Assembly: GCA_012295275.1 (NCBI GenBank)
Contig: CM022672.1
Span: 21,142,001 to 21,206,000 of the forward strand
From: Chrysomallon squamiferum
Taxonomy: Eukaryota; Animalia; Mollusca
Direction: 5' to 3'
DNA: 64,000 bases
This document shows positions 645 to 30,672 of the stretch, piece after piece (position 1 is the first letter of the stretch; every line of letters starts with the position of its first letter). The notes under the pieces were generated by a model. That model worked only from the letters and a program-made list of their open reading frames with translations, made no database searches and had not been told where the DNA came from. A program made the position numbers and the translations under genes.

Positions 645-3600
645 ATGATGAAAATTGGTTTAGCTGCAATTGTCTGTAAGTATATTTTGTTGATTCTAAT
701 ATATTTCTATTAGTGAAATGCCTTTTATAGTTCCCTGAACATACCGACATTCTGTTAAATTTTTAATATTTTAATAACAGCTCTTTCAAGTCATTTAAAT
801 AGCTCCTGGTTTGGAATCGTTCATTATAACAATAATAAGATCAAATAGTTTGTGAAATGGTTCAGGTCAGATGCGAAGCAGTATACTTCAGTTCTTAATG
901 CCTAGGATTGTTTAAATCCTTACTGGGTTGTATTTGGACCGAATGAGCAGTAAAATTCACATTCAGTAGATCATAATTATACTTGCACTTTCAACAGTGA
1001 ACTATAGACAGTACTACTGAAGTTAAATTCTTAACTGAGATATCAAATCTTTTAAAAATAATTTTCTTATGACACTAAGATTTTAACGAGAAATACAAAC
1101 AACAATTTCACGCATCTTATTATCCTAAGTTATTGTAATAGTGTCACGAGTTTTGTTGTTTAATGGGTACAAAAAACAAAGTCTAAAACATAGAATTTTC
1201 AGTCCATGGAAAACTCAAATTCTAAAATAGACTAATCATCATTTTCATAATGTTTTGTAATCCGTTTCGTTTGAGAGTCATTTAATGAAATTTTCCACGC
1301 TGGAACTTCTGTTTTGGCAAGAGTTTGTATTCATAAAATGCTTATTATTTGGTGAAGTTTATACAAAATTATATATATTTTGAACAATTGTCTAAAATGT
1401 ATTCCTATCCTTAAACTGATTTGGGGGTGCTAATATCTATTTGCGTCTCACAGGGAATACTGTCAGAAAACACGTCTGAGCGACTTCATGTAGTCAGGAA
1501 TATCTATGAATAGTTACAAAAAATTTGTATTAACCTTTTGCATATATATTCAGGATAGTAACCAGAGAATTATACCGTCATATTTCTACTGTTAGTTGAA
1601 CATCATGGGGACAGGTTGAAACTAACATTTGTAGTTAGAAATGTTCTTTTTTCTACGATGGAAATCAATATAACTAACATGGACACCTTGCATCCAAATC
1701 GTGTTCAAAGTCCAACTTGTATAGTAATCTAGGGGTTTCCAAACATTTTATTTCACCGATCCCTTTGATGATGTCCGAATAATCGAGAGTTTGATAATTA
1801 AATATTTAGAAGATGTTTTTTTTACGACGTGTTCGTTGAATAATAATGATTACGGTATAGTAAAAACTGAATATTAAAAAAACGAAAATATACACCACCA
1901 ACAACAACAACAACAAACAAACAAAAAAAAAAACACACAAAAAAACACAAAAAAACCCTCAAACAAAACAAACAAACAAAACAAACAAACAAACTAATAA
2001 AAGAAAAACCATTTATAATTAAAGGTGAAATCTGGGATTGATATATTTTAAATGGACTACTGACACTGGACTGGTAATTTTTAAGGTTTAATTTTGAATC
2101 TCCTCTTTCTTCCAAGTTCGGCATGTTTCTCTACATTATTAGAAGTACGTTAGTATCGCTAAATCCAGTACAACCATATATGAAGTTGGGAATGGTAAAA
2201 TAAAAGACAGTTGACTTGCAAAAAAGTAGGTATATCCAGTATAAATTATTTCAAAAACAACAATATCTTGGGGTTCTGTATTGTTGTGGTCAGTTTTGGA
2301 TTCTGTTGTTATTCATTTTTTTAGAATGTTTAATTTTAACAGAAAAAAAAATAAACAAATAAAAATAAAAATAAAATTCAAGAAAAAGAAAGAAAACAAA
2401 CACAAACATCATTAAGATCACTTTAACTCTGATCGATATAAGGGGGTGGAGCACTGTGGAAACCAGACTTGTAAAAATTTAATTCAAATCACAAAAAAAG
2501 TTCTATAACATAATGATGTCGGTATGAGAAATCTGACGTGGTCTTGACAAATATCCGTCGAAACACCTCTATTTGAAACTAATGAAACTAATTATACTAG
2601 TGCAAATATGTAAATAGTAGTTTTTAATTTTGTTTTCAAGACATTATACAGCATCATTTTCCTTTCACCATAATTAATTTCTATAAATATTTTTCTTTTT
2701 AAAGGTTTTATTTCCTTCATTTCTGTCGACTGCGCTGACAGACAAGATGCTGGAGAAAGAGCAAACCTGGTGATGCCAGATCGTCGCAGTGTATATTTTG
2801 AAGAAAGTCGACAAGAACGATCGGAAATAAATGTGAATGGAAAGAACCGGAAAAATTTACACGATATTCTCAACGCAAACAGTCATTATGACTTCAAAGT
2901 TGTACGAACCGTTAAAATCGCAAACGGCAAAACAAAACAACGTATAGAAGTAACCTTCGATGGCATCCCTGTATTTGGTCTCAGTATCCAGGCTACGTAC
3001 GACGAAAAGAACGGTTACACGGGAGCTCTGACGGGCGAGTTTGTCTCGGGAATAGAAAATGATATCAGCGACTCTTCATCTTGCCAAAGAAACGAAAACT
3101 TTTTGCTTTCACTAGGCAAAAAGAAATCTGGGCTTCCAGCTGTCTGTCCACACTGCAGCTTAACTAGGTCACAGAAGTATATCTATTTTGATAACAAAAA
3201 TAAGGCACATTTAGCTTATGTTATAGAAATCGAAAACGATGCCCCAGAGAAATTTTCTCGATATTATCTCATTGTTGATGCTTGCACCCTCGGCACTTAC
3301 GAGATGAAAAACACGACACCAAACCGCAAACAGTCGGTATCTTCCATCCATGAAGCAGATATCACTAAAGAGGAAAGAAGATCGAATATCAATAAAAGGC
3401 AAAATTGTCCAGTGTCTGCCAGAGGGACAGGAGGGAATCCCAAAATAGGACCTATCCATTACGGAACCTGGCCATTTTGTCTTGATGTTACAAGGAGAGG
3501 TCGAAGATGTATCTTGGAGAACGCTAACGTAAAGGTTACTGACATGAAACACAGGAATACAGGAGGACGCGTATATCGGTACAACTGTCGTAGAGCACGT

Positions 3601-4650
3601 GATTCGATTAATGGAGCAAACTCAGCAAACCTAGATGCATTCTTTTACGGAAATGTCATGACTCGCGTATTCCAAAATAATTACCACATGAATCCACTGC
3701 CTTACCAGATCTCATTAAAGACCCACTGGGGAAATAATTATAATAATGCATTTTGGGACGGGAGAGCCAGAGAAGCCGTTTTCGGCGATGATAATAACTA
3801 TGTTTATACTTGGGTATCTCTGGATATAGTCGCACATGAAGTTGCTCATGGCATGACAGACCAGTATTCTAATTTGGTGTATGCAGATGAGTCTGGTGGA
3901 ATAAACGAAGCATTTTCTGATATTACAGGTGAGATGGTTGAGGCTTTTTCTGGTTACAGAACTACTGACTGGATGGCCGGTTACGACATTACCAAGAGGC
4001 AAAATAGTGCAATAAGATATTTCTGGAATCCGCCAAAGGATGGTGTTTCAATTAGCCATGTAGATGATTACAACAACGGAATGGATGTCCACTACAGCAG
4101 CGGTATTTACAATAAGGCATTTTATGAGATGGTTGTGACACAAAGGATACCTATGAGACTTGCATATCACATGATCCTGTTAGCCAATCAAATGTATTGG
4201 AATGCTAACAGCAATTTCCAACAGGCAGCCTGTGGAGTTCGAAATGCCGCCATAGATCTGGGTATCAGCACATCTAAAGTCGATGCTGCCTTTTCAGTCG
4301 TGGGTATCAACACCGCCAGATGTGGTGGAGGAAACAATGGATATAACACGCTTTATCCTGGCAGACTGACATTCAACGTGTCTCCGTCGGTCAATCCATG
4401 TTTTCTACTACAGCCGCGTTCGGCCTCTTGGTATTACATATATGTCATTGCAAACACCAGAAATGGAAATCACGTCCTGATGACCATTAAGAACGGAGTC
4501 ACTATGCAAACCATTGGCTCAAGATACGATCGACTCGCTTATTACTTACCCAGCAACGGACAGGATCGTCTAATCTGCTTTTCTGCCAGCAGACCCACAA
4601 CAGTATATTTACGAACGTACTATTGTGGATTTAACGGTTGCGTAAACTGA
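645..4650 (+). CDS. M4-family (pseudolysin/vibriolysin-like) zinc metalloprotease preproprotein, copy 1; join(645..675,2705..4650), 658 aa
   Basis: Exon 645-675 encodes MMKIGLAAIV plus T, then donor GTAAGT at 676. Acceptor TTTTCTTTTTAAAG|2705 restores the frame to give the signal peptide MMKIGLAAIVCFISFISVDC-A. The propeptide has FTP-like (QRIEVTFDGIPVFG) and PepSY-like (AHLAYVIEI...YLIVDA) motifs. The mature domain has GGNPKIG, NAFWDG, HEVAH (3835-3849), GGINEAFSD (third Zn ligand E at 3907) and DVHYSSG (H at 4090). A ~110-aa C-terminal extension follows. The ORF-track start at 2770 is not the true start. Confidence 0.93.
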
Positions 4651-4692
4651 TGACCATAAATATGTGAAAGAAATATTTCTACAGTTTTATCG

Positions 4693-4698
4693 AATAAA
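4693..4698 (+). terminator. Polyadenylation signal of copy 1
   Basis: AATAAA ~43 nt after the stop codon, at an equivalent position in copies 2 and 4. Confidence 0.65.
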
Positions 4699-5134
4699 GA
4701 TTTATCTCACTGTATTTTCTAGTAAACAGAAGACCACTCTGAAATCAATTTGAAAACTGATAACTGACTCAAAAATTAACGGAAGAATCACCTTTATCTA
4801 TTTTTTTCCCCTGTTTAATTAAATGTGAAATCTCATAATGCTATTTGTTGTCTTTTTGTCGATAATTTTATTTGTGTGTTCCTAAGAACTGTACTTAATA
4901 ATATTAGAAAGGATACTGATATGTCGTTAAGTCAGTAAAATTGATACTCGGTAACAAATGGTAAAAAACTTTAAAAATAAAATATTAATAATAAATGATA
5001 GTATGTGCAGCTGAATACGTTCCACTTTGCAAAAATGAAAAGATTTCTGCTAAAGCTATTCATTTTTCCAAAAAGTCACGCCCATGCACACACACAGACA
5101 AACCTACAATTACTGGAACAAAAATGTACATTGT

Positions 5135-5240
<106 letters not shown>

Positions 5241-7120
5241 GAGTTCAAAGAAATAGGACACAAACATAAACAAAAGAAAAAGTAAAAGTTATATGTTCCT
5301 TCCATTAATGACAGTAGGTTTATGATAAGTGGAGTAGATATTTTTGTTGGGAGAATTTCGGTAGTTTGCACATCTTTAAACAAGTGGCTCCCCAATTTTT
5401 TAGATAAACTGAGCCCAACAATGATAAACATTGTGGAACATTAAAAAAGAAATTTAAAAGTTCTGTTAAACTTTCAAGCCAGAACTTTGCTGAAGCTAAA
5501 TATAAAATACACAATGTAACGCGGAATAAGACATTATTATGCAACAAGTCAATCTGTTACGGACATATTGTATTTTTTTTTAATATCAATTCACATCTTA
5601 TTCTGAATTTTATCGCAGAATCCCACTTAATTACAGGAAATATAACTTGAAATCCGACACGATTTGCTTTGCTTCAGGTTTAAAGGAGTTTACCACAATA
5701 TGTGGGAAACAGTTATTCATGATTATCAGATATTACACATATCAAGTAATATGGAAAATAGCAGTCCAATGTGAAAAAAAAAAAAAAAATGTATTTGCTT
5801 CGTATTCGCTAGGCTAATATCAAGTTTGGGAGTACATTTGCCTAGACGTTTTTCTGTAATGAGATTAAACGGCTATAAACAACTGTAATCAGCTGTAAAC
5901 AACAAAAAAAAAATAAATAATAATCATAATAAAATTGCATAAATAAAACAAAATAACGAATCCAGGTAATACATTTGTAACGATATAGCCACACACACAC
6001 ACACATTACCCTATTTAATCCTTAAGACAGACTATAATTTGTAGAAAAAATAAGGTGATAGTCCTTTGCAATGAGTAGGTTTCTATAATTTTCACAGTGA
6101 TAACTGAAAACTGAAAACTGTGTGAACACTTTTTTGGAGGCAATGTAAACATAATTTGTAATAAAACGTTTCGTTTTTGGATCCAGCTCAGTTTCTGCGG
6201 TTTCCATTTTATTTTTTCATCTATAGGATTGTTAACAAAATGAGCCTCGAAACTGTGTCAGTAGAAATTTTTAACCATTTAAAGCTACCGATTTTCAACC
6301 ATCTAGAAGTATATTGAATCTGAAACAAACCAATGAAGGCAATCTTTTGCAGAAATTGTTACTTTTGTAATATCCCAAATTAATACAACACTCTGTTAGT
6401 GTAAATAAGCCTTTAAAATATTTATTAAGCAGCGTTCTTGGCATCTCACATCTTTTTCAGAAAATTATTTTATTGGCGTGTATAAAAGTAGGTCATCAGC
6501 TATCTATGATACTACATGCATAGTCCTACGAACTGAACCTATGCTCCACACACATACACACATCCACACACACGTGTACACACAAATACAAATACATACC
6601 CACACACACATACACACGTGTACACAAACATACAATCATACACTGGTTTTGGTTTACATTGATATATTAGTTTTATTACGGGTTATGTTTGGCACTAATG
6701 ATTCGCTTCAGGTATGATACATGTTCATCTTAACGTCGTTTACGTTTACATACATGAGGACTATAAATCGTATTTTAGACTTTGTTCTTGCACTCATTCT
6801 TCACCAAAATAAATCCTATTTATTAAATTCATAAATGTGTATGTATATCACAGGTTAATAAAAAAATACATGTTTATGTGTCTACATGTGCATGCAACAG
6901 TACATGCAACAGACACATATAGAAGTATATATTTAAGCAACCATCTATCTGTCTAATCCACCTAGTGTGTGCGTGCGTAGATAGAACGATAGCGTGTAAA
7001 TTTGTAATAACAAACACATAAAAATACATGGAATACTATAAGCAGAATATAATAACACATACGCAAAAATGCAAATATATTGACAGTCATGAATTCACAC
7101 ATCTATACTACAAATGTCTA

Positions 7121-7228
<108 letters not shown>

Positions 7229-8158
7229 TAAATAAATACATATATATTTATTCAGGCAGGGTTTATAATGGCTGATCTGGTGCGAAAAAGGTATTATTTA
7301 TAACTTGAATCATATTCTACAACAACAACTACTACTACTGCTGCTGGTGTTGCTCCTGCTACCATTACTCCTATTACTACTACTAACAACAACAACAACA
7401 ACATTAATAAATAAATAAATAAATAAATAACATTAAAGTAAATATTTAAGAAATAAATGTTATTATTACTAAAAATTAAATGAAAAAGAAGAAAAAAGAG
7501 AGAGAATATATAAATTAAATTTTAGTACAAAAATATCGATCCTTCTGTCAATATATGTGTCCTTTTGGTATTTTTTTATCTAAATAAATCTTTTACTAAA
7601 ATCACGTTCGCATAAATGGACATTTTTTTTGTTGACGTTTCTGAGAAATGGTCTTTTGATTCAAAATAAAATTTTAACGCTCAGGTCAAGTTTAACTTTA
7701 TTAACTGGAAAAGTCATCACATTGTCCACTTGGGTGTGAATTTTATTTTAAAAACACACAAAAGTATTTAATCTTCAGTCTCAAGTTTTAAAACGTGCAT
7801 ACATAAAAGTTAGAAAATAATCTTCTTCCCTGACTGACCTTTTGTCAAATAAATATTATTTTGAACCAGTATTTGCAGTACATTCATGTACCTAATCATG
7901 ATATATAGATTCATTAATACTGGTGTAGTTTTCATGCACACTCGAGAATAAAAAGTTCTTTTAGTTCATATTTAGGACAGGTATTTAATTAAATGTTTCT
8001 CTGATGGTATCTAACCAAAACCCGAAACAGACTGAGAAAATTTACAAAAGATTAAAAAAGTGAAACAGAACAAAAAAATATATATTGAATTATATTAGAT
8101 TATACTCCAGGACTTAATTGAAAAAGTAGATAACAAACTGGTACAATCAACTGAAATT

Positions 8159-8263: not shown

Positions 8264-8289
8264 GTGAGAAACATTTAGATTATATTTTC

Positions 8290-8372
<83 letters not shown>

Positions 8373-8695: not shown

Positions 8696-11600
8696 ATGAT
8701 GAAAATTGATTTAGCTGCAATTGTCTGTAAGTATACTTTATTCATTCTAATACATTTTAGTAGTTAAATGCCTTTTATTGTTCACTGAACATATTATAAT
8801 TCTGTTATTAATATATATAAATCTTAACATTATTTTTATATTTCATTAACAGCTCTCTGAAATTATTTAAATAGCTCCCTTTTTGGAATCATTCATTATA
8901 ATATTATTAAGATAAAATATTCTGTAAAGTGGTAGAGGTCGGACTGGAAGCAGTGTACCTCTGTTCTTGATGCATCGGCCTGCTTAAATCCTTATTGGAT
9001 TGTATTTGAAGCGTATGAACAAATACATTCACGTTCAGTAGATTATAATTATACTTGCACTTTCAAAAGTCAACTACAGACAGTACTTCCAAAATTACAA
9101 ATTTTAACTGAGATATCATGTCTTTTAAAAGGAAACATCAAGATTTTAACGACAACATGCAAACAGCAATTTTATGCGCATTATTATAATAAGGTATTGG
9201 AATATTGTATTGGTTACTGTTTAAAATAATATATATGTTAAAAAATAATAATAACAGAAACAAACAAAAAATCCAAAACAGAATTTTGAGCCCATGGAAA
9301 ATTCAAATTGTAAAACAGACTAATCATCCATCTTATATGATTTTCATTCAGTCGTTTGGAAAATAATATTTTATAATCCGTTTTGTTTTCGGATCTTTTA
9401 ATGAAATTTTCGTCGCTGGAATTTCTGTTTTGACAAGAGTTTGTATTCATAAAATGCTTATTATTTAGTGAAGTCTCAAAAAAATTACATATTCGTAAAT
9501 TATATATATCTTGACAATTGTCTAAAATTAATACGTATCCCTTAAATTGTGATTTGAGGTTCCTGATACGTATTTGTGTCTCACGTATACGTATACAATA
9601 TCTCACACAGGAAATATTGTCAAAAAAACACGTCTTATGGACTTCATATAGTCATGAATACATCGGAATAGTTCTAGAAAGTTGCATTAACCTTTATATA
9701 CATATTCGGGATATTAAACAGAGAATTATGTGATCATGTTTCTGCTGGACTGATTGAACGCCGTGGGGTCGGTCGGGTTGAAACTGACATTTGTAGTTAG
9801 AAATGTTATTTTCTCTACGATGGCAATCACTATATCTAATGTGGACACCTTGCATCCAAATCGTGTTCAAAGTCCAACCTGTATAGTAATTGATGATGTC
9901 ATAATAATCCAGATTTTGATAATTAAATATTTTTTTGTGACGTGTGCGTTGAATAATAATGATTATTGTACAGTATAAACTGTATATTACAAAAAGAAAA
10001 CATACACCAAAAAAACAACAGCAGACAAGAAAAAGAAAAACTATTTATAATTAAAGGTGAAATCTGGCATTGATATTTTTTTAATGGCCAGTTGACATTG
10101 GACTGATAATTTCTAAGCTTTAATTTTGAATCTCCTCTTTCTTCCAAGTTCGGCATGTTTCTCTACATAATTAGAAGTACGTTAGTATCGCTAAATCCAG
10201 CTTCAACCGTATATGAAGTGGGGAATGGTAAAATAAAATGTAGTACACTAGCAAAAAATTATTTCACAAATGTAGCTGTGATTTCAACGATACCTTTGCA
10301 TTCTATGCTGTTGTGGTCAGTTTTGGATTTTTTTGAATATTAAAACTTCTAAAAAAACAAAAAAAAAAAAACAAACAATATATATAAATAAATAAATAAA
10401 TAAAAGATCAAGAAGAAAGAAAGAAAAAACAACAACAATAATATCACTTTATCTCTGATCAGTGGGGGCTCGGACCACGTTAGAAATCAGTATTGAAAAC
10501 ATTTAATTCAACTCGGTATGAGAAATCTGATGCGCTCTTAATAAATATCCGTCGAAACATTTGTATTTAGATCATCACTACAGAAAACAAAAAACTCTAC
10601 TTATTATTATTGTTATTGTTGTTATGAATAACTGGTGAACTTGAAACGGCTGTACATAAAAGAATAAATCGTTAAGCATGACATTAATATGTTTACCCAT
10701 CGCAATTTGGACATTGATTTCTGATAGCTCAACGTTTCTACTTATGCACCAAGAGCGATATTTCTTCTTTTTTTTTTTTCCTGGAATTCTTTCCTTTTTC
10801 TTAATTCCCTAAAATCTTAAAATTCCATTTATAATCAAAACATCTAATTAATTTACATGTTCTTAAACATTGTGTACCACAATAATAATAATAGCAACAA
10901 CAACATCAACAACAACATTCATAATAATAATAATAATAATAATAATCATAATAATAATAATAATAACTATTATTATTATTGTTGTTGTTATTGCTGTTAC
11001 CATTATTACTATTATAATTATTATTATTATGATTATTATTACTAGTATTATTATTTTTTTATTCATTTATTCATTCATTTATCTGTTGAAAATAATTATA
11101 CTATTACAAATATATAAAAAGTAGTGATTAAGTTAGATTTCAAGACGTTTACATTACAGAGCATAACTTTCCTTTCACCATAATTAATTTATTAAAATAT
11201 TTTTTCTTTTCAAAGGTTTTATTTCCTTCATTTCTGTCGACTGCGCTGACAGACAAGATGTTGGAGAAAGAGCAAACATGGTGATGCCAGATCGTCGCAG
11301 TGTATATTTTGAAGAAAGTCGACAAGAACGATCGGAAATAAATGTGAATGGAAAGAACCGGAAAAATTTACACGATATTCTCAACGCAAACAGTCATTAT
11401 GACTTCAAAGTTGTACGAACCGTTAAAATCGCAAACGGCAAAACAAAACAACGTATAGAAGTAACCTTCGATGGCATCCCTGTATTTGGTCTCAGTATCC
11501 AGGCTACGTACGACGAAAAGAACGGTTACACGGGAGCTCTGACGGGCGAGTTTGTCTCGGGAATAGAAAATGATATCAGCGACTCTTTATCTTGCCAAAG

Positions 11601-13161
11601 AAACGAAAACTTTTTGCTTTCACTAGGCAAAAAGAAATCTGGGCTTCCAGCTGTCTGTCCACACTGCAGCTTAACTAGGTCACAGAAGTATATCTATTTT
11701 GATAACAAAAATAAGGCACATTTAGCTTATGTTATAGAAATCGAAAACGATGCCCCAGAGAAATTTTCTCGATATTATCTCATTGTTGATGCTTGCACCC
11801 TCGGCACTTACGAGATGAAAAACACGACACCAAACCGCAAACAGTCGGTATCTTCCATCCATGAAGCAGATATCACTAAAGAGGAAAGAAGATCGAATAT
11901 CAATAAAAGGCAAAATTGTCCAGTGTCTGCCAGAGGGACAGGAGGGAATCCCAAAATAGGACCTATCCATTACGGAACCTGGCCATTTTGTCTTGATGTT
12001 ACAAGGAGAGGTCGAAGATGTATCTTGGAGAACGCTAACGTAAAGGTTACTGACATGAAACATAGGAATACAGGAGGACGCGTATATCGGTACAACTGTC
12101 GTAGAGCACGTGATTCGATTAATGGAGCAAACTCAGCAAACCTAGATGCATTCTTTTACGGAAATGTCATGACTCGCGTATTCCAAAATAATTACCACAT
12201 GAATCCACTGCCTTACCAGATCTCATTAAAGACCCACTGGGGAAATAATTATAATAATGCATTTTGGGACGGGAGAGCCAGAGAAGCCGTTTTCGGCGAT
12301 GATAATAACTATGTTTATACTTGGGTATCTCTGGATATAGTCGCACATGAAGTTGCTCATGGCATGACAGACCAGTATTCTAATTTGGTGTATGCAGATG
12401 AGTCTGGTGGAATAAACGAAGCATTTTCTGATATTACAGGTGAGATGGTTGAGGCTTTTTCTGGTTACAGAACTACTGACTGGATGGCCGGTTACGACAT
12501 TACCAAGAGGCAAAATAGTGCAATAAGATATTTCTGGAATCCGCCAAAGGATGGTGTTTCAATTAGCCATGTAGATGATTACAACAACGGAATGGATGTC
12601 CACTACAGCAGCGGTATTTACAATAAGGCATTTTATGAGATGGTTGTGACACAAAGGATACCTATGAGACTTGCATATCACATGATCCTGTTAGCCAATC
12701 AAATGTATTGGAATGCTAACAGCAATTTCCAACAGGCAGCCTGTGGAGTTCGAAATGCCGCCATAGATCTGGGCATCAGCACATCTAAAGTCGATGCTGC
12801 CTTTTCAGTCGTGGGTATCAACACCGCCAGATGTGGTGGAGGAAACAATGGATATAACACGCTTTATCCTGGCAGACTGACATTCAACGTGTCTCCGTCG
12901 GTCAATCCATGTTTTCTACTACAGCCGCGTTCGGCCTCTTGGTATTACATATATGTCATTGCAAACACCAGAAATGGAAATCACGTCCTGATGACCATTA
13001 AGAACGGAGTCACTATGCAAACCATTGGTGCAAGATACGATCGACTCGCTTATTACTTACCCAGCAACGGACAGGATCGTCTAATCTGCTTCTCTGCCAG
13101 CAGACCCACAACAGTATATTTACGAACGTACTATTGTGGATTTAACGGTTGCGTAAACTGA
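8696..13161 (+). CDS. M4-family zinc metalloprotease preproprotein, copy 2; join(8696..8726,11216..13161), 658 aa
   Basis: Exon MMKIDLAAIV plus T|GTAAGT (8727). Acceptor TTTTCAAAG|11216 is in frame. The large exon is nearly identical to copy 1, with all catalytic motifs intact. Confidence 0.92.
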
Positions 13162-13203
13162 TGACCATAAATATGTGAAAGAAATATTTCTACAATTTTA
13201 TCG

Positions 13204-13209
13204 AATAAA
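13204..13209 (+). terminator. Polyadenylation signal of copy 2
   Basis: AATAAA at the same position as in copy 1. Confidence 0.65.
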
Positions 13210-13661
13210 GATTTATCTCACTGTATTTTCTAGTAAACAGAAGACCACTCTGAAATCAATTTGAAAACTGATAACTGACTCAAAAATTAACGGAAGAATC
13301 ACCTTTAACTATTTTTTTGCCCCTGTTTAATTAAATGTGATATCTCATAATGCTATTTGTTGTCTTTTTGTCGATAATTTTATTTGTGTGTTCCTAAGAA
13401 CTGTACTTAATAATATTAGAAAGGATACTGATATGTCGTTAAGTCAGTAAAATTGATACTCGGTAACAAATGGTAAAAAACTTTAAAAATAAAATATTAA
13501 TAATAAATGATAGTATGTGGAGCTGAATACGTTCCACTTTGCAAAGATGAAAAGATTTCTGCTAAAGCTATTCATTTTTCCAAAAAGTCACGCACATGCA
13601 CACACACAGACAAACCTACAATTGCTGCAACAAAAATGTACATTGTTACAGGGCTTGTAAG

Positions 13662-13826
<165 letters not shown>

Positions 13827-15716
13827 GAGTTCAAAGAAATAGAAAAAAGAAATAGGACACAAACATAAACAAAAGAAAAAGTAAAAGTTATATGTTCCTT
13901 CCATTAATGACAGTAGGTTTATGATAAGTGGAGTAGATATTTTTGTTGGGAGAATTTCGGTAGTTTGCACATCTTTAAACCAGTGGTTCCCCAATGTTTT
14001 TAGATAAACGGAGCCCAACAATGAAAAACATTGTGGAACATTAAAAAAGAAATTTAAAAGTTCTGTTAAACTTTCAAGCCAGAACTTTGCTGAAGCTAAA
14101 TATAAAAATCACAATGTAACGCGGAATAAGAAATTATTATGCAACAAGTCCATCTGTTACGGACATATTGTATTTTTTTTAATATCAATTGACATCTTAT
14201 TCTGAATTTTATCGCAGAATCCCACTTAATTACAGGAAATATAACTTGAAATCCGACACGATGTGCTTTGCTTCAGGTTTAAAGGAGTTTACCACAATAT
14301 GTGGGAAACAGTTATGCATGATTATCAGATATTACACATATCAAGTAATATGGAAAATATCAGTCCAATGTGAAAAAAAAAAAAAAAAAAATGTATTTGC
14401 TTCGTATTCGCTAGGCTAATATCAAGTTTGGGAGTAAATTTGCCTAGATGTTTTTCTGTAATGGGATTAAACGGCTGTAAACAACTGTAATCAGCTGTAA
14501 ACAACAACAACAACAAAAAATAATAATCATAATAAAATTGCATAAATAAAACAAAATAAGGAATCCAGGTAATACATTTGTAACGATGTAGCCACACACA
14601 CACACACATATTACCCTATTTAATCCTTAAAACAGACTATAATTTGTAGAAAAAATAAGGTGATAGTCCTTTGCAATGAGTAGGTTTCTATAATTTTCAC
14701 AGTGATAACTGAAAACTGAATTCTGTGTGAACACTTTTTTGGAGGTAATGCAAACATAATTTGTAATAAAACGTTTCGTTTTTGGATCCAGCTCAGTTTC
14801 TGCGGTTTCCATTTTATTTTTTCATCTATAGGATAGTTAATAAAATGAGCCTCGAAACTGTGTCAGTAGAAATTTCTAACCATTTAAAGCTACCGATTTT
14901 CAACCATCTAGAAACAAATTGAAACTGAAACAAACCAGTAAAGGCAATCTTTAGCAGAAATTGTCACTTTTGTAATACAACACTCTGTTAGTGTAAATAA
15001 GCCTTTAAAATATTTATTAAGCAGCGTTCTTGGCATCTCACATCTTTTTCAGAAAATTATTTTATTGGCGTGTATAAAAGTAGGTCATCAGCTATCTATG
15101 ATACTACATGCATAGTCCTACGAACTGAACCTATGCTCCACACACATACACACATCCACACACACGTGTACACACAAATACAAATACATACCCACACACA
15201 CATACACACGTGTACACAAACATACAATCAATCATACACTGGTTTTGGTTTACATTGATATATTAGTTTTATTACGGGTTAGGTTTGGCACTAACGATTC
15301 GCTTCAAGTATGATACATGTTCATCTTAACGTCGTTTACGTTTACATACATGAGGACTATAAATCGTATTTTAGACTTTGTTCTTGAACTCATTCTTCAC
15401 CAGAATAAATCCTATTTATTAAATTCATAAATGTGTACGTATATCACAGGTTAATAAAAAAATACATGTTTATGTGTCTACATGTGCATGCAACAGTACA
15501 TGCAACAGACACATATAGAAGTATATATTTAAGCAACCATCTATCTGTCTAATCCACCTAGTGTGTGCGTGCGTAGATAGAGCGATAGCGTGTAAATTTG
15601 TAATAACAAACACATAAAAATACATGGAATACTATAAGCAGAATATAATAACACATACGCAAAAATGCAAATATATTGACAGTCATGAATTCACACATCT
15701 ATACTACAAATGTCTA

Positions 15717-15845
<129 letters not shown>

Positions 15846-16631: not shown

Positions 16632-17172
16632 AATCGGTAGCTTTAAATGGTTAGAAATGTCTACTGACACAGTTTCGAGGCTCATTTTATTAACTATCCT
16701 ATAGATGAAAAAATAAAATGGAAACCGCAGAAACTGAGCTGGATCCAAAAACGAAACGTTTTATTACAAATTATGTTTACATTGCCTCCAAAAAAGTGTT
16801 CACACAGTTTTCAGTTTTCAGTTATCACTGTGAAAATTATAGAAACCTACTCATTGCAAAAGACTATCACCTTATTTTTTCTACAAATTATAGTCTGTCT
16901 TAAGGATTAAATAGGGTAATATGTGTGTGTGTGTGTGGCTACATAGTTACAAATGTATTACCTGGATTCCTTATTTTGTTTTATTTATGAAATTTTATTA
17001 TGATTATTATTTTTTGTTGTTGTTGTTGTTTACAGCTGATTACAGTTGTTTACAGCCGTTTAATCTCATTACAGAAAAACGTCTAGGCAAATTTACTCGC
17101 AAACTTGATATTAGCCTAGCGAATACGAAGCAAATACATTTTTTTTTTTTCACACTGGACTGCTATTTTCCA
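16632..17172 (-). repeat. ~540-bp inverted copy of the inter-gene spacer (homologous to ~14351-14898 and ~5752-6293)
   Basis: Reverse-complement match. The spurious METAETELDPK ORF is on - at 6022-6207 and 14627-14812 but on + at 16718-16903. Confidence 0.9.
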
Positions 17173-17457
17173 GTTGACACTGGACTGATAATTTCTAAGC
17201 TTTAATTTTGAATCTCCTCTTTCTTCCAAGTTCGGCATGTTTCTCTACATAATTAGAAGTACGTTAGTATCGCTAAATCCAGCTTCAACCATACATGAAG
17301 TGGGGAATGGTAAAATAAAATGTAGTACACTAGCAAAAAATTATTTCACAAATGTAGCTGTGATTTCAACGATACCTTTGCATTCTATGCTGTTGTGGTC
17401 AGTTTTGGATTTTTTTGAATATTAAAATTTCTAAAAAACAACAAAAAACAACAACAT

Positions 17458-17501
<44 letters not shown>

Positions 17502-18025
17502 AAGATCAAGAAGAAAGAAAGAAAAAACAACAATAATATCACTTTATCTCTGATCGACATCACGGCGGTGGGGGCTCGGACCACGTTAGAAATCAGTGTT
17601 GAAAACATTTAATTCAACTCGGTATGAGAAATCTGATGCGCTCTTAATAAATATCCGTCGAAACATTTGTATTTAGATCATCACTACAGAAAACAAAAAG
17701 CTCTACTTATTATTATTGTTATTGTTGTTATGAATAACTGGTGAACTTGAAACGGCTGTACATAAAAGAATAAATCGTTAAGCATGACATTAATATGTTT
17801 ACCCATCACAATTTGGACATTGATTTCTGATAGCTCAACGTTTCTACTTATACACCAAGAGCGATATTTCTTCTTCTTTTTTTTCCTGGAATTCTTTCCT
17901 TTTTCTTAATTCCCTAAAATCTTAAAAGTCCATTTATAATCAAAACATCTAATTAATTTACATGTTCTTAAACATTGTGTACCACAATAATAATAATAGC
18001 AACAACAACATCAACAACAACATTC

Positions 18026-18078
<53 letters not shown>

Positions 18079-18344
18079 CATAATAATAATAATAATAACT
18101 ATTATTATTATTGTTGTTGTTATTGCTATTACCATTATTACTATTATAATTATTATTATTATGATTATTATTACTAGTATTATTATTTTATTCATTCATT
18201 CATTCATTTATCTGCTGAAAATAATTATACTATTACAAATATATAAAAAGTAGTGATTAAGTTAGATTTCAAGACGTTTACATTACAGAGCATAACTTTC
18301 CTTTCACCATAATTAATTTCTATAAATATTTTTTCTTTTCAAAG

Positions 18345-19829
18345 GTTTTATTTCCTTCATTTCTGTCGACTGCGCAGACAGACAAGATGCTGGAGAAAGA
18401 GCAAACAAGGTGATGCCAGATCGTCGAAATGTATATGTTGAAGAAAGTCGACAAGAACGATCGGAAATAAATGTGAATGGAAAGAACCGGAAAGATTTAC
18501 ACGATATTGAGCACTGACGGGCGAGTTTGTCTCGGGGATAGAAAATGATATCAGCGACTCTTCAGCTTGCCAAAGAAATGAAAACTTTTTGCTTTGACTA
18601 GGCAAAAAGAAAGCTGGGCTTCCAGCTGTCTGTCCACACTGCAGCTTAACTAGGTCACAGAAGTATATCTATTTTGATAACAAAAATAACACGGCACCAA
18701 ACCGCACAAAGTCGGTATCTTCCATTCATGAAGCAGATATCCCTAAAGAGGAAAGAAGATCGAATATCAATAAAAGGCAAACTTGTCCAGTGTCTGCCAG
18801 AGGGACAGGAGGGAATCCCGAAATAGGACGTATCCGCTACGGAACCTGGCCATTTTGTCTTGATGTTACGAGGAGAGGTCAAAGATGTATCTTGCAGAAT
18901 GCTTATGTAAAGGTTTCAGATATGAATCAAAGGTATTCTGGAGGACAAGTATATCAGTATAATTGTCGAACAGCACGTGATTCGATCAATGGAGCAAACT
19001 CGGCAAACCTAGATGCATTCTTTTATGGAAATGTCGTGAGTAAAGTTTTCCGAAACAATTACCATATGAATCCATTGCCTTACCAGACCTCATTGAAAAC
19101 CCACTGGGGATATCAAAATAATAATTATGGGATTCGAGATCCAAAGAAGCCCTTTTCGGCGATGAGAGTAATCGACTTTATACTTATGTAGCTTTGGATG
19201 TGATCGCACATGAAATTGCTCATGGTATGATAGACCAGAATTCTCAGTTGGTGTATGCAGATCAGTCTGATGGAATAAACGAAGCATTTTGTGATATTAC
19301 AGGTGAGATGGTTGAGGCTCTTTCTGGGTACAGAACTAATGATTGAATGGCCGGAATATTTTCGGAATCCGTCAAGAAATGGTGTTTCAGTCGGCCATGT
19401 AAACAATTACTACAACGGAATGGATGTCCACCATAGCAGCGGTATTTACAATAAGGCATTTTACGAGATGGTTGTGACACAAAGGATACCTATGAGACAT
19501 GCATATCACATGATCATGTTAGCCAATCAAATGTATTGGAATACTAACAGCAATTCAACGTGTCTCCGTGGGTCAATCCATGTTTGCTACCACTGCCCCG
19601 TTCGGCCTATTGGTATAACATATATGTCATTGCATACACCAGCAATGGAAGTCACGTCCTGATGACCATTAAGAACGGAGTCACCATCCAAACCATTGGC
19701 TCAAGGTACGATCGACTCGCTTATTATTTACCCAGTTATGGACAGGATCGTCTAATCTGGTTTTATGCCAGCAGACCCACAACAGTATATTTACGAACGT
19801 ACTATTGTGGATTTAACGGTTGCGTCTAG
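18345..19829 (+). pseudogene. M4 protease pseudogene (copy 3)
   Basis: The acceptor (AAAG|18345) and HEIAH / GINEAFCD / DVHHSSG are retained. Relative to copy 1 there are deletions of ~154 nt (at ~18508), ~108 nt (~18689), 4 nt (~19126), ~35 nt (~19354) and ~157 nt (~19556). TGA stops occur at ~18595 and 19344. There is no upstream promoter or signal exon, and the polyA signal has decayed to AATATA (19879). Confidence 0.93.
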
Positions 19830-20555
19830 TAAACTGATGCTATACATATATGAAAGAAATATTTCTACAATTTTATTGAATATACATCTATGTATTTTCT
19901 TGTAAACAGAACAACACTATGACAACTGATAACTGACTAAAACATTAATAGAAGGATCACCTTTATCTGCTTGTTTTCCTGTTTAATTAAACGTGAAATC
20001 TCATAATGCTATCTGTTGTCTTTTTGTCGATAACTTTATTCTTATGTACCTAAGCACTGTACATTATATATTAGAAACGATACTGATATGTCATTAAGTC
20101 AGTAGAACTGATACTCGGTAACAAATGAAAAGAAATGGCAGAAATGAAAAGACGTCTACTAAAGCCATTTATTCTTCCAAAAAGACAAGTATATGCGCAG
20201 ACACAGACAGGTCTAAGTATATTATTTCCCTAATTACGGTAATAAAATAAATACAAAAAGAAATCAAAAGTAAAAGTTATATGTTTCCTCCATTAATCAA
20301 AATATGATCATAATAACTGGAAGAATTTCGTCAGTTCGGACATCTTGAAATCAGCAGTTCCTTAGCTTTTTAGATAAACTGAGCCCAGCAATAAAAAAAA
20401 AAATATTGTGGAACCTTAGAAAGAAATCTGAATGTAAAACTTTCAAGCCAGAACTTTCCTAGAGAAAAATACTTCTGTCTACATAAATTTAACAATTCTA
20501 TACGTTCATCTTCTAACTGATACTTTCCACACACACACGAACACACATAAACACA

Positions 20556-20595
<40 letters not shown>

Positions 20596-21134: not shown

Positions 21135-22215
<1,081 letters not shown>

Positions 22216-22733: not shown

Positions 22734-24141
22734 GGTATCAGGACAATTGTCCCCAGACAACTACCCCCACAATTTCTTTTTCAAATATACCATACAGAAC
22801 GATTTTCAAGCAACATTCCAATACATTAGTCAAAGTGTGTTGCATTAAACTTAATTGAAAGAATTTGGATTTCTAATTCAATAAATTAGTCAAAGCTAAC
22901 TAGAATCAGCTAATTACTAACTAAACTTGAGTATTTGGATTACTTTGATTTGCTAAAACATATTATAAAATATCATCTAACAATCAAAACTAATTAGAGT
23001 CAGTTAATTACTAATTCAGGCTAATTAAATGCTAAAGCTTCCTTTGATTTGCCAAGTGATCTATAACTGAGATGAATGAAACAGTATATTAGGTCATGCC
23101 TTATAGCAAAAATATTATATTCTCTAAAATAGAGTTCACTGACTCAGAGTGTGGTCATACAAAATTTGCCTTCGAAAACTGTGTATGTCCGACAGAAGGA
23201 ACTTAGTGGTGCAATGTTTTCTTACGAGTGTGAAGGAAGAAGGCAACACGTCCGTAAAGCTAAAATGTACTGTGACTGGATGCTTCTTTCATTTGAGTCA
23301 ATGCATCTGGCGCCAAATTCAACTTATTAGTCTGGCAGTTCGTTACAACACTGATGAAGAGTTTGCTTAACTGATCCATCAGATAGCTGAAATTGCATTC
23401 GTTCCAGTGGATGAAGTCACGGCAGCTTTTGAAACACTATCAGTGATGATTCTGTGTTATAAATATTGGAGTACGTTGAGGACAACTTCGTCTATTGCCA
23501 ATATGGCAGAGCTGGTCGCAGACATGGTCCGCCGTTACAGTCTTGGCATGTGGAACATGCACCAGAGGTTGGAAAAGAATGTGGTGCGGACTAACAACTT
23601 CGTGGAAGGGTGACACCGATGCTTCCAGTCAAACATTGGTGCCATCTGAATTTCTGGAAGTTTATAGACATTTTAAAGCGTGAATAAGCACTAATGAATT
23701 GGGAATAAATCAGATGAACAGAAGAGAAGCACCTCAACCACTTCATCGAAAATACCAAGAAGCTTCATTGTGTTCGTTGAGACTGGTCAGACAGCGTGAA
23801 AACCGACACGTCGTGGACTGTTTGAGTGGAACGTCACACAACATGAAAGTGTGAAAACTGAAAAGTATCAATGAACTCTTGTAAGAAGTGCCTTAGTAAA
23901 CATGGTTATAGTTGAACCTGTACTTGTGAATGAACTGTTGATTATACAAGGCTTTACTAGAGAACTATGAACAGACTACTCTGAATTTCATTTTATATGT
24001 GGTATATTATTTTTGAAGTTTTAAAAAATTTGTTCTTATACATGTAAATATATATTATTGTGCTTGAAAATCATTAGAGGAAGAAAACATGGGGGGCAGT
24101 TGTCCGGTGGTCAGTTGTCCGGGGGAAATTGTCCTAGAAAC
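22734..24141 (+). mobile_element. Degenerate Mutator-like (MULE) DNA transposon
   Basis: Left TIR GGACAATTGTCCCCAGACAACT (22741) pairs with the right end AGTTGTCCGGGGGAAATTGTCC (to 24134). Internal broken frames (~23230-23850) encode GCFFHLSQCIWRQIQ, IAFVPVDEV and WNMHQR...RTNNFVEG*H, typical of MULE transposases, with stops and frameshifts. No target-site duplication was recognised. Confidence 0.85.
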
Positions 24142-24687: not shown

Positions 24688-24793
24688 AACCAATCAAAAT
24701 GAGAAGATAGATAGAAGAAAGATGGCGAATGTTTCATATAAAGGCGACACAAACAAGACGAAACTACATGTTCTGAAGCTTATTCGAAATAAG
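24688..24793 (+). promoter_or_regulatory. Pol II promoter (CCAAT 24690, TATAAA 24737-24742) and non-coding exon 1 of copy 4
   Basis: Same motif order and spacing as the copy-2 promoter despite diverged flanks. Donor AAG|GTGAGA at 24794. Confidence 0.7.
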
Positions 24794-24818
24794 GTGAGAA
24801 ACCTTTCATTACATTTTC

Positions 24819-24939
<121 letters not shown>

Positions 24940-25059
24940 CTATAATAATTTATGGTCTTTTAAATAACAGAGGTACTTTCATAGTTTAGTTTTAAAAATT
25001 AAGGAAAAGAAAGTAAACTATTTAATTCCAGAAGTTTCAGACGTTGCTCGAAAATCAGC

Positions 25060-28000
25060 ATGATGAAGATTGGTTTAGCTGCAGTTGTCTGTAAGTATGT
25101 TTTCTTGATTCTTTTGCGAGTTTAGTAATGTAATTCCTCTGATGTTTCCCTCAGCCTCTTGACATTGTTTTATTAATTTAGATAACCATTAAAAATCTCA
25201 TACAGTTTAGTAACACTCTCTCAAGTGATGTAAGCTCCCATTCCGGAAACGTTCATTTTAACGTTAGGATAAAAATTGCCATGGCAACGATTACGCGATT
25301 TTGTTTTAACCTCCGGAGGTTAGGATCAGTTTTACCATTTTTCGGATGCTGTATATAAATAATGATTTAATTTTCCAGTAGAATGCAGAATTTCATTTAA
25401 AAAACAAAACATTTTAACACTGCAAATTGAAACTACATGGAGAAATATTGGGGTAAATGTTTCCTTTATGAAGCCACAGAATTTAATTCATCATGATACA
25501 AAATATTCTGAGAAGCAATGCAACGCTGCTTAAAGCTTTATTTGATAATATGTGAAGTTATCATGCAACGAATGAGCAATGAAATTTACCTAATTATACT
25601 GCAAATTTCATTTTGATCTGGGACATCAAACTTTTTAAAATTAAATTGCCCTGTGACTCCCAAAGTTTAACGTACAGTTTTATCCTGTTATTGTAATACT
25701 GTCAAGTCTATAATTAGTTGCTGTTTAAAAGATCGACGTAAAAAAAAAAAAAAAAAAATAAAAGCAAAAACAGTAAAATCCAAAACATAGAATAGTCATT
25801 CCATTATAAAATTCACGTTCTAAAACAGAACAGTGATCCCTCCTATATGATATTCACCCCATCTTTTGTACCATATTATTTTATAATACGTTTGTTTTCG
25901 GTGTCGTTTAATGAAAAAATTTAATATTTCTTGCTGGTAATTGTTTTTTGGTGTAGGAATGTTTTTATTCGTAAAATTTATCAAACAGTGCTGAAATCTA
26001 TACTAAATTACGTATTCATAACTTATATGCATCTTGACAGTTGTCTAAAACTGATATCCACCCGTTAAAATGTGATTTGGGGTGCTAATATCAATTTATG
26101 TCTCACAGGGAATACTGTCACAAAACACGTATGATCGACTTCATGTAGTCATGAATATATAGTTAAAGAAAGTTGTTTTAACCATTTGTATACATATTCA
26201 GGATAATAACCAAAGCATTATCAGGTTAAGATTGTACTGGATAGATTGGACCCATGTGGACATGTTTGGAATGGAGATTTTTGGTTAGAAATCACCTTTA
26301 TCTGTGCTGGTAATCCAGTAACTAAAATGGACACCCTGCAGCCAAATCCTGCTCAAAGCCCTGCACGAATATATAAACAGTTAACTCATTATAAACTTAA
26401 ATCAAATTGAATAATTTCATGAGAGAGGTCAGATGATAACAGGCAGTGCAAACATTAGAATCCAACATTGCAGCAAATGGGGAACACTTACTTTTCAGTT
26501 CTGAAGCTGTACAAATTGGAGTCCAAAATTCCATTCAGTTATATTATTTCCTAACCAACAAACAGTGATGTCCTTAATGTCAGTTTGCTCTGTCTACGGA
26601 CCCTTGGCTCCGAGGATGCTTATGTTTTCCTAGGACCATCATCAACTAAAGTCACATTACTTTCAATTCAATGATTACATATATTTTCTGAAAGTTTTAG
26701 GAATTATACATATTTTCTGTAACGTACGTGTGTCTGTGTGTGTGTGATAAGATAAAATTGTTATACTACTAATTAGTATTAACACTGTGTTGCTGCTGTT
26801 GTGCTTGATGCTGTTATTACTACTATATAGTTCAAAAACTATTTCAATAATTGTGCTATTTTTTTTATGTAAGTATGCCTGGCTATGTATGTATATGCCT
26901 ATGTATCCAATTGAAAATAATAATAATAATACAAAGATATATATATATACCGTATATACTTGTGTACAAGGCGACCTTATGTATAAGTCGATGTGTATTT
27001 TAAGACCAAAAATTGCGTCATTTTGTGTATTACTTGTGTATAAGTCGACTGTAGATTCCAGGCACCGTCACTATTTTTAGACCAGTGTGACAGTGCCATG
27101 AAGGCCTACATTGTACGCCTACTGTAACATAACTTGCACGAGCTGTAACTTGCACGAACATACCATAATAACGTAAATGCATGTATTACACGAGCTATAG
27201 CCTAAATGTATCATAAACAGTATTTCAAATATGGCGAGAAGTTGAACTGATTTCTGCTGCAGAACGTTTATAGAAATTTAGTTTGTTTTCGATTTGTCGG
27301 TAGTGGATATTAATGACGATTGCAATATTATTTCACCAAATTCTTTACAATTAAACAAGTGAGTTTTGTTTATGAAATTAGGACCGATATTTAGTGCAAT
27401 TTGGCAGAGCAGTCTGCATTCCTAGATCAGTGCAAGACGCCGTAAGGCATAACGCCGTACTGACGGTTTTCTCGCTTTAAAATGTATTTTTATGTCATTA
27501 AACGGAAGAATATCATGTTTTACCTTCATATTTGGTTTTGTTATTTAATTTTTCAAAAATGTTTATACGATAAAATTATATTTTTGAAAAGCTGAAAGAC
27601 CGGGATTATTTTAGATGCATCCCGTAGCAAAAAATAGTCAAAATGGCGACTCTTCGGCAACAGCTACAAAAGCATTACCTATGTATAAGTCGACCCCCAA
27701 AATATTACCTTAATATAGTCTCCCAAAAATTCGTCTTATACACAAGTATATACGGTATATATTTATATGTTAAAGCATTGATTAACATCGTCTAAAGATT
27801 TTCTTCTGCATAGGGCGTAACTTTGCCTTAACCGTAATTAATTTATTTATATATTTCCTTTTTTTAAAGATATTATTTCCTTCATTTCTGTCGACTGCGC
27901 TGACAGACAAGATGCTGGAGAAAGAGCAAACATGGTGATGCCAGATCGTCGAAATGTATATATTGAAGAAAGTCGACAAGAACGATCGGAAATAAACGTG

Positions 28001-29815
28001 AATGGAAAGAACCGGAAAGATTTACACGATATTTTCAATGCAAACAGTCATTATGACTTTAAAGTTGTACGAACCGTTAAAATCGCAAACGGTAAAACAA
28101 AACAACGTATAGAAGTAAGCTTCGATGGCATCCCTGTATTTGGTCTCAGTATCCAGGCTACGTATGACGAAAAGAACGGTTACACGGGAGCTCTGACGGG
28201 CGAATTTGTCTCGGGAATAGAAAATGACATCAGCGACTCTTCAGCTTGTCAAAGAAATCAAAATTTTTTGTTTTCTCTAGGCAAACAAAAATCTGGGCTT
28301 CCAGCTGCCTGTACATACTGCAGCTTAGCTAGGACACAGAGGTATATCTATTTTGATAACAAAAATAAGGCACATTTAGCATATGTTATAGAAATTGAAC
28401 ACGATGCCCCAGAGACATTTTCTCGATATTATCTCATTGTTGATGCTTGCACTCTCAGCACTTACAAGATGTATAACACGGCACCAAACCGCAAACAGTC
28501 GCTATCTTCCATTCATGAAGCAGATATCCCTAAAGAGGAAAGAAGATCGAATATCAATAAAAGGCAAAATTGTCCAGTGTCTGCCAAAGGGACAGGAGGG
28601 AATCCCAAAATAGGACCTATCCGCTACGGAGACCCACCGTATTGTCTTGATGTTACAAGGACAGGTCAATGGTGTTTCTTGAACAATTCTTATGTAAAGG
28701 TTACTGACATGAAACAACAGACTACCGGAGGACAAGTATATCGGTACAACTGTAGTAGAGCAAATGATTCGATTAATGGCGCAAACTCGGCAAACCTGGA
28801 TGCATTCTTTTATGGAAATATAATGACTCAAGTTTTTCGAAAGTATTTCCAGATGAATCCACTGCCTTTTCAGATATCACTGAAAACCCACTGGGGAAAT
28901 CATTACCATAACGCAGCGTGGCACAAGAGCCAGAAATATGCCCGTTTCGGCGATGATAGTGACAGCTATTATACTTATGTAGCTTTGGATGTGGTCTCAC
29001 ATGAAGTTGCTCATGGCATAACAAACCAGTATTCTAGTTTGTTTTATTCAGGTCAGTCTGGTGGAATAAACGAAGCATTTTCTGATATTACAGGTGAGAT
29101 GGTTGAATTTCTTGCTCCCTACAGATCGAATGATTGGTTGGCTGGTTACGATGTAAGCAAAGGGAAATATACAGCGATGCGATCACTTAAAAATCCGCCG
29201 CTGGATCATAAATCAATTAGTCATGTAAATAACTACCATGATAAACTAAATGTCCACTACAGCAGCGGTATTTACAATAAGGCATTTTATGAGATGGTTA
29301 TGACACAAAGAATACCTATGAGAGATGCATATCACATGATCTTGTTAGCCAATCAAATGTATTGGAATTCTAACAGCAATTTCCAACATGCAGCCTGTGG
29401 AGTTCGAAATGCTGCAGCAGATCTGGGTATGAGTACTGCTCGAGTGGAAGCTGCGTTTTCAGTCGTGGGTATCAACTTTACTGCCTGTGCAGGAGGGAAC
29501 AATCAATACAACACTCTTGAACCTGGCAAACTGACGCTCAAAGTATCTCCCTTGTTCAGTCCGTGTTTGTTAATACAGCCCAGATCAGAGTTGTTGTATA
29601 TTCTGTATGTCATTGCAAACACTAGCAATGGGGGCCATGTCAAGATGACCATTAAGCATGGTGTCACTATGAAAGAGATTGGTTCAAGATATGATCGACT
29701 GGGCTATTATTTACCCAGAAGCAGGCAGGATCGTCTAATCTGCTTTTCTGCCAAGAGATATATAACAGTTAATTTAAACACATACTACTGCGGACATAAG
29801 GGTTGCGTCAATTAA
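25060..29815 (+). CDS. M4-family zinc metalloprotease preproprotein, divergent copy 4; join(25060..25090,27870..29815), 658 aa
   Basis: Exon MMKIGLAAVV plus T|GTAAGT (25091). Acceptor TTTTTAAAG|27870 gives MMKIGLAAVVYIISFISVDC-A. HEVAH, GGINEAFSD and NVHYSSG are intact, and the large exon is the same 1,946 nt. Confidence 0.93.
26950..27755. mobile_element. Non-autonomous Tc1/mariner(pogo)-type MITE, ~806 bp, in the intron of copy 4
   Basis: TIRs CCGTATATACTTGTGTA... and ...TACACAAGTATATACGG are flanked by TA on both sides. The subterminal motif TGTATAAGTCGA repeats at ~26980, ~27036 and ~27682. The element is absent from the introns of copies 1-3. Confidence 0.88.

Positions 29816-30640: not shown

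Positions 30641-30672
<32 letters not shown>

Follow-up and report, generated by a model that had tools for sequence, protein, structure and literature searches.

Tandem vibriolysin-type M4 metalloprotease genes in Chrysomallon squamiferum: recent copies of a mollusc-wide family of likely ancient Gram-negative origin

A 64,000-nucleotide stretch of the genome of the mollusc Chrysomallon squamiferum (assembly GCA_012295275.1, contig CM022672.1, positions 21,142,001 to 21,206,000 of the forward strand; hereafter the window, with positions counted from its first letter) carries a tandem set of three intact two-exon genes for M4 metalloproteases (copies A, B and D) and one deleted pseudogene (copy C), all on the plus strand. 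They add members to a family that public annotation already contains, and the array itself reflects nothing more unusual than the recent tandem duplication of an old gene. Taken as a whole, it is likely that the copies are recent duplicates of a vibriolysin-type M4 gene from a mollusc-wide family, that this family was founded by a single ancient transfer out of a Gram-negative bacterium, and that a secreted digestive protease is encoded. Among the parts of this account, inheritance within molluscs is nearly certain and an ultimately bacterial origin by transfer is very likely, while the Gram-negative type of that origin is well supported. A preliminary description of the window, made from its letters, had spoken of four co-oriented copies of a bacterial-type protease that had been amplified locally; tandem copies are indeed present, four in number and on one strand, with only three of them intact.

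Copies A, B and D comprise 658 codons each, end in one stop codon and are interrupted by one phase-1 GT..AG intron (2029 nt in A, 2489 nt in B and 2779 nt in D), so that the spliceosomal introns proposed earlier were found in three copies. In each of the three, exon 1 measures 31 nt and has a GTAAGT donor, and exon 2 follows a pyrimidine-rich AAAG acceptor. The N-terminus of copy A is strongly hydrophobic (Kyte-Doolittle 11-mer means up to 2.5) and constitutes a predicted signal peptide that is split by the intron; its residue 5 is Asp in copy B and Gly in A and D. Relative to A, copy C lacks stretches of 154, 108, 4, 35 and 157 nt, and no exon 1 was found for it.

The intact copies encode predicted M4 zinc endopeptidases in which the catalytic residues are preserved. 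All three exceed the gathering scores of Pfam Peptidase_M4_C (E 2e-30), Peptidase_M4 (E 2e-20) and FTP (E 2e-5); in bits, copy A reaches 74.1 for Peptidase_M4 (cut-off 22.4) and 106.1 for Peptidase_M4_C (cut-off 24.4), and copy D 63.6 and 112.6, respectively. Each carries HEVAH (residue 388) and NEAFSD (residue 411), corresponding to HEXXH and to NEXXSD with the third zinc ligand, and none of the 53 rows of the mollusc clade described below departs from the zinc-binding His pair, the catalytic and third-ligand Glu residues, the Arg and the His of DVH. The active-site Tyr, Arg and His, which have catalytic roles in such enzymes, are present in the copies, and the four acidic positions that we take to be the calcium ligands of Pseudomonas aeruginosa LasB read D/E/E/D in A and D; the five motifs quoted in the preliminary description were all found in copy A. 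The AlphaFold model of copy A has a predicted local distance difference test score (pLDDT) of 81.8 and a predicted template modelling score (pTM) of 0.85; Foldseek superposed it on vibriolysin MCP-02 with a root-mean-square deviation (rmsd) of 1.6 over about 300 residues, and template modelling (TM) scores of 0.95 on the target for 3nqx and 7ecc correspond to the two-lobed thermolysin-like fold. By sequence, PlM4P (7ecc, E 1e-77) and MCP-02 (E 3e-71) come first among the solved structures, followed by LasB (E 2e-66 to 6e-63), ProA (E 2e-55) and thermolysin (E 1e-26). The propeptide matches that of MCP-02 both in sequence (3nqy_A, E 1.5e-9) and in fold (3nqz_A, E 6.6e-10), and Pfam PepSY had no match in the window proteins; of the FTP plus PepSY-like propeptide described earlier, FTP and the likeness to MCP-02 stand, and the Pfam PepSY match is absent. 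There are two N-glycosylation sequons in A and five in D. Membership of the fungalysin family M36 was ruled out (Pfam Peptidase_M36, 18.1 vs a cut-off of 23.3), as was the Legionella ProA equivalog NF045902 (252.8 and 224 bits vs a 900-bit NCBIfam cut-off). The products are, with high probability, active secreted proteases. The earlier statement that the gene was kept active agrees with the intact catalytic residues and with the selection analysis below and, this being its basis, goes too far as written.

The C-terminal ~110 residues form a beta-sandwich with a jelly-roll fold in the model. When a profile of this domain built from 37 animal proteins was compared with a PPC profile from 38 bacterial M4 proteins, HHalign gave 86.6% (E 4.5e-6) over 114 columns, end to end, the first few columns of the PPC profile alignment overlapping the end of the catalytic domain; 30 column shuffles gave at most 1.5% and a reversed profile gave 7.2%. 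A Pfam PPC match was found in the animal-like row P0219. Judged by the profile comparison, the C-terminal domain is a degenerate PPC domain homologous to bacterial PPC, which gives the precursor the layout of vibriolysin and HapA and not that of LasB, so that vibriolysin/HapA replaces LasB as the model chosen in the preliminary description. Pseudolysin (LasB) proper was ruled out by the about 110 extra PPC-homologous C-terminal residues.

The linker before the catalytic domain is longer in the subclade of the window genes, to which many gastropod proteins belong as well: its median length there is 61 residues vs 20 in bacteria. In the window proteins it is about 49 residues long and contains KR followed by Q, three residues before C245. 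Among the rows that could be parsed (the parser skipped 6 of 27 subclade rows and 9 of 140 bacterial rows), [KR]R[QE] occurs in the linker of 11 of 21 subclade rows vs 0 of 131 bacterial rows, and the linker ends in a cysteine in 21 of the 21. A Cys at the position of C269 of copy A is found in 46 of the 53 mollusc-clade rows; in the 140 bacterial rows, Cys does not rank in the top four letters there. The short junction of autocatalytic propeptide removal in vibriolysins has given way to this longer dibasic linker. Dibasic sites are known targets of animal proprotein convertases, hence activation by a host convertase at the KR-Q site of the linker is suggested, and we regard it as slightly more probable than not.

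The best database matches of the window proteins are animal sequences. Named relatives were found in 18 mollusc species from what we take to be four classes, under the annotations elastase-like, neutral protease-like, hemagglutinin/proteinase-like and hypothetical. These are eight gastropods (Haliotis asinina, H. rufescens, H. cracherodii, H. rubra, Lottia, Babylonia, Elysia and Physella), eight bivalves (Solemya, Tegillarca, Pinctada, Ylistrum, Potamilus, Mactra, Ruditapes and Mercenaria), Octopus bimaculoides and the chiton Liolophura sinensis. The suspicion that similar proteins might already be auto-annotated in other molluscs was thus confirmed, so that any transfer must be old, and the patchy animal distribution envisaged alongside it does not hold within molluscs, four classes of which carry the family. 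Organism names are sparse, with 7 of the 30 clusters looked up carrying one. Among the best 150 of 16932 matches of an exhaustive profile search, there is a second, long-branch clade of 12 rows with lengths of 607-793 aa and longer C-termini (P0330, P0332, P0219, P0298, P0254, P0287, P0344, P0278, P0339, P0261, P0263 and P0359). For several of these the source is an ENA contig of 0.6-7.5 Mb, and the single named one of the 12 is a transcriptome sequence assigned to Siedleckia nematoides, an apicomplexan parasite that lives in a polychaete, so that the sequence may be the worm's. We infer that the 12 rows are animal proteins, and they may extend the family beyond molluscs.

Trees of the catalytic domain (292 columns) were built from a set of 66 rows and from 64 rows chosen from 212, new groups included, and approximately unbiased (AU) tests were run on 35 of the 64. 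The 26 mollusc-type rows in the 66-row tree, window copies A and D among them, form one clade (support 100/98), and in the 64-row tree the main mollusc clade has 100/98, or 95/80 together with Octopus and Ylistrum. All animal rows group with the Gram-negative vibriolysin/LasB/ProA subfamily vs the thermolysin/Streptomyces outgroups (100/99). A tree that places the window genes with Gram-negative bacteria, apart from other animals, was rejected (p-AU 0.00045), and with it a capture specific to this lineage; the window genes lie inside the mollusc clade. A single animal clade has a p-AU of 0.55, the constrained tree being 1.9 log units above the free one. Within the family, the window genes group with the ENA protein P0341 (269-kb contig) in a deep paralogue branch of their own (100/94); they have no close sister other than P0341, which likewise ends in a cysteine-capped C-terminus. 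P0319 (Octopus) and P0337 (Ylistrum) form a separate paralogue branch (100/98), which suggests that several M4 paralogues were already present in early molluscs.

Several points weigh against this account. The trees contain only three outgroup rows, of thermolysin/Streptomyces type, P. aeruginosa LasB is absent from them, and both careful bootstraps stopped short of full settling. All 33 animal-like rows unite only weakly as one clade (81/72 in the 64-row tree), and a topology that unites all Gram-negative rows and leaves the animals outside was not rejected (p-AU 0.31), so that the nesting inside Gammaproteobacteria expected at the outset is not upheld. No single donor lineage is picked out, and the animal clade joins the polytomous base of the Gram-negative subfamily. 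In the window, Pfam PPC had no match in the C-terminal domain, and a fold search with that domain ranked SIDT and further jelly rolls first (Z 11.1), ahead of collagen-binding/PPC domains (Z 8.8-9.5); fold searches (SIDT, GOLD, collagen-binding and PPC) left the origin of the domain undecided, and the profile comparison decided it. As to activation, longer animal linkers raise the chance of a dibasic site, and [KR]R[QE] is missing in 10 of the 21 subclade rows parsed, with 6 of 27 skipped. Finally, in one of the sequencing runs considered below (X5), exon depth in copy D is 161-239 vs 114-133 in the intron and 3' flank, the exon contigs being 1.2-1.8x deeper.

The weak union of the animal-like rows leaves some room for more than one ancient transfer, in which case molluscs and the 12-row clade, possibly from annelids or other invertebrates, would each have gained the gene independently; these groups split in a reduced quick tree, and the 12-row clade is of other length and is without the extra cysteine of mollusc type. 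The best careful tree, however, has a single animal clade, which the AU test did not reject, and we consider separate transfers unlikely; they would leave the reading of the window genes unaffected. Vertical inheritance from an early eukaryotic or animal ancestor, followed by loss in most lineages, would accommodate the unrejected tree with animals outside the bacteria, and other eukaryotes could be missed because database naming covers about a quarter. Such a history is nevertheless improbable: every named eukaryotic match is a mollusc, bar one parasite transcriptome, 10 of 10 listed ESM Atlas clusters for the protease are 98-100% bacterial (small clusters lie outside that search, which is hence no sign of absence elsewhere), the animal profile matched 29 PDB sequences, none of them a eukaryotic M4, and the animal rows fall in one bacterial subfamily, whose full domain order they keep. 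A recent transfer into the lineage of this organism, independent of other molluscs, could be read from the long branch of the window proteins and from their identity of 34-42% to the best mollusc matches, barely above the 35-39% to bacteria. It is very improbable in view of the AU rejection, of the animal-type C-terminal domain that the window proteins share with other animal rows, of the extra cysteine that they share with most mollusc rows and of a GC content at third codon positions (GC3) of 0.37-0.40 in the M4 copies, near or under the 0.46-0.51 of host exons.

Bacterial contamination or mis-assembly, to which we give next to no credence, would find some comfort in the fact that nearly the whole protein sits in one exon and that, among the contigs listed, none links the array to the neighbouring host gene with a cyclic-nucleotide-binding domain (CNBD) and only one bridges the stop codon of D with at least 31 letters per side. 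On the other side stand the spliceosomal introns of three copies, one of which holds a high-copy host transposon, the duplicated microsatellite-rich flanks, the decayed pseudogene and the sequencing depth. Seven runs from three studies contain the exon of copy A, and depth was measured over 25000-30800. Exon depth in D is near that of the intron and flank in all four runs, from three studies (X1, 7.6-10.7 vs 5.5-8.5 in the intron and 3' flank; X2, 51-67 vs 52-68; X7, 38-64 vs 42-59; X5, as above), which argues against a contaminant, as the preliminary description had done from introns and duplications, and it is virtually certain that the M4 copies are genuine host genes. The duplication of A and B was checked by means of paralogous alleles mapping to D. 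Of 24 differences listed inside the D exon, 23 match the letters of A and B, and at four sites with A/B letters where C is deleted the depth is 15.4, 119, 346 and 108, about twice the single-copy level or more. The A/B-type alleles thus stand at ~2x single-copy depth in 4 of 4 runs, which argues that A and B are two separate loci and not two haplotypes assembled in tandem.

Between A and D there are 110 synonymous and 193 non-synonymous differences and no stops, and the ratio of non-synonymous to synonymous divergence (dN/dS) of 0.43 indicates that selection has been purifying, if rather relaxed. The synonymous divergence (dS) of this pair is 0.13 for the propeptide and climbs to 0.75 for the C-terminal domain. 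A and B are 96-98% similar over 2583-8018 and 11087-16633, but just 72% around exon 1. Both patterns point to an array shaped by unequal crossing-over or gene conversion. The catalytic domain of D differs from that of A at 29% of residues, one of its strands reading NAAW in place of NAFW, and these differences would fit a diverging specificity. The segment 16632-17172 is an inverted copy (96%) of 5752-6293 and 14351-14898 and borders on an incomplete duplicate of the intron of B (17170-18508). The junction marks the rearrangement that yielded pseudogene C without exon 1.

In the mechanism proposed here, the signal peptide would take the protein into the secretory pathway, where the FTP/PepSY propeptide would act as chaperone and inhibitor until a host proprotein convertase cuts after the Lys-Arg of the linker, replacing bacterial self-cleavage or acting alongside it. 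The extra cysteine pair may tether the new N-terminus. Extracellular protein substrates would be cleaved at the zinc site while bound to the PPC-like domain, by analogy with the bacterial M4 protease E495, whose PPC domains bind protein substrates according to a passage in PMC3327674. A digestive role is the simplest one for secreted broad-specificity enzymes that amplify locally, and it is tentatively put forward as the main role. Matrix remodelling or hatching is a doubtful candidate, control of mucus or microbes an equally doubtful one, and predation is less probable again. It is also possible, if only tentatively so, that a vibriolysin-like gene entered the mollusc or lophotrochozoan ancestor before the classes split and was kept in at least four classes and in several paralogue lineages, one of them with KR-Q convertase activation, for a core role in digestion or defence.

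The coordinates of the array and of its surroundings are collected in Table 1. The window is AT-rich, with 26-39% GC per 2 kb, and contains many microsatellites; these, the DNA-transposon-like element and the neighbouring multi-exon animal gene were seen as the preliminary description had said. The 810-nt element reaches a summed depth of 1e3 to 3e5 across four runs, that is, a very high copy number in all of them. The decayed open reading frame (ORF) fragments of the 1394-nt element have what we take to be a Mutator-like look, without Pfam support, and Pfam gave no transposase for the two ORF fragments at 23143-23610. An inverted repeat at 31597-32164 has 153-nt arms, which are 88% complementary and 179 nt apart, and is probably another small transposon. 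In the CNBD gene, the exon at 45318 matches Pfam cNMP_binding, and two of its three listed Atlas clusters are 100% eukaryotic, the third being without recorded taxa.

Table 1. Features of the M4 protease array and its surroundings (positions in the window)
Feature	Position	Strand	Description
Copy A exon 1	645-675	+	start codon and first half of predicted signal peptide; GTAAGT donor; phase 1, in frame with exon 2
Copy A exon 2	2705-4650	+	remaining signal peptide, FTP/PepSY-fold propeptide, basic linker, catalytic domain, PPC-like C-terminal domain
Copy A exon 2 landmarks	KR-Q linker end 3394; HEVAH 3835; NEAFSD 3904; DVH 4084	+	
Copy A PPC-like C-terminal domain	about 4345-4647	+	
Copy B exon 1	8696-8726	+	
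Copy B exon 2	11216-13161	+	protein 99.2% identical to A; catalytic domain same as A
Copy C, pseudogene, exon 2 only	18345-19832	+	five deletions, four of them frame-shifting
Copy D exon 1	25060-25090	+	
Copy D exon 2	27870-29815	+	protein 77.2% identical to A; catalytic residues intact; NAFW strand is NAAW
Non-autonomous DNA-transposon-like element, miniature inverted-repeat transposable element (MITE)-like, 810 nt	26948-27757	.	19-bp perfect terminal inverted repeats, TA flanks; in copy D intron
Element, 1394 nt	22741-24134		imperfect terminal inverted repeats, decayed ORF fragments
Multi-exon host gene with cyclic-nucleotide-binding domain (CNBD gene)	about 44800-50480	+	exons near 44800, 45350, 48060 and 50400

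M4 proteases of marine Vibrio are virulence factors against shellfish, and matches to 'elastase', 'hemagglutinin/protease' or 'vibriolysin' in mollusc transcriptomes need not mean bacterial contamination. If the account given here is correct, a phylum-wide M4 family that predates the split of chitons, snails, clams and octopuses would be among the older retained transfers from bacteria to animals, would have added a protease class to animal secretomes and would constitute an undescribed animal family of thermolysin-type proteases. The surprise is limited by the fact that the genes are already publicly annotated, the locus being one more local expansion. M4 proteases are called almost exclusively bacterial in a passage of PMC7851659. 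No description of a mollusc M4 family or of its origin was found in the literature searched, which consisted of listings and abstract openings, with subscription journals and MEROPS outside the search; the supplements of compendia of horizontal gene transfer (PMC13342648, PMC12637581) may list the genes. Term searches of the main text of PMC13342648, PMC5685644, PMC11184841, PMC9132205, PMC3482391 and PMC3750612 gave no relevant passage, and the main text of the first of these, in which Mollusca come last of the top seven phyla, yielded no mention of proteases to such searches.

Among known systems, the window genes are closest to the mollusc RefSeq/GenBank models, with which they have in common the clade, a length of about 630-700 aa, the domain order, the catalytic residues and the degenerate PPC domain; neighbouring paralogues occur in the Elysia, Ruditapes and Mercenaria records too, as in the window. 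Identity to these models is 28-42%, and the window genes sit with P0341 on their own deep branch. The vibriolysins MCP-02, PlM4P and Vibrio cholerae HapA have the same succession of signal peptide, FTP, PepSY fold, M4, M4_C and one PPC, and their catalytic domains are 42-44% identical to those of the window proteins (rmsd 1.6). Unlike vibriolysins, the window genes are nuclear, with a spliceosomal intron, a ~49-residue dibasic linker, extra cysteines, a diverged PPC domain and sequons. P. aeruginosa LasB is alike in its motifs (39-40% identity, rmsd 1.8-2.6), yet it scores under the vibriolysins, and its chains match profile positions 36-501 of 613 and are thus without the C-terminal PPC domain. 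Fungalysin M36, a eukaryotic protease that also has an FTP propeptide, has the gluzincin fold in common with the window proteins and is more distant from them (Pfam E 0.002, TM about 0.5, 14% identity).

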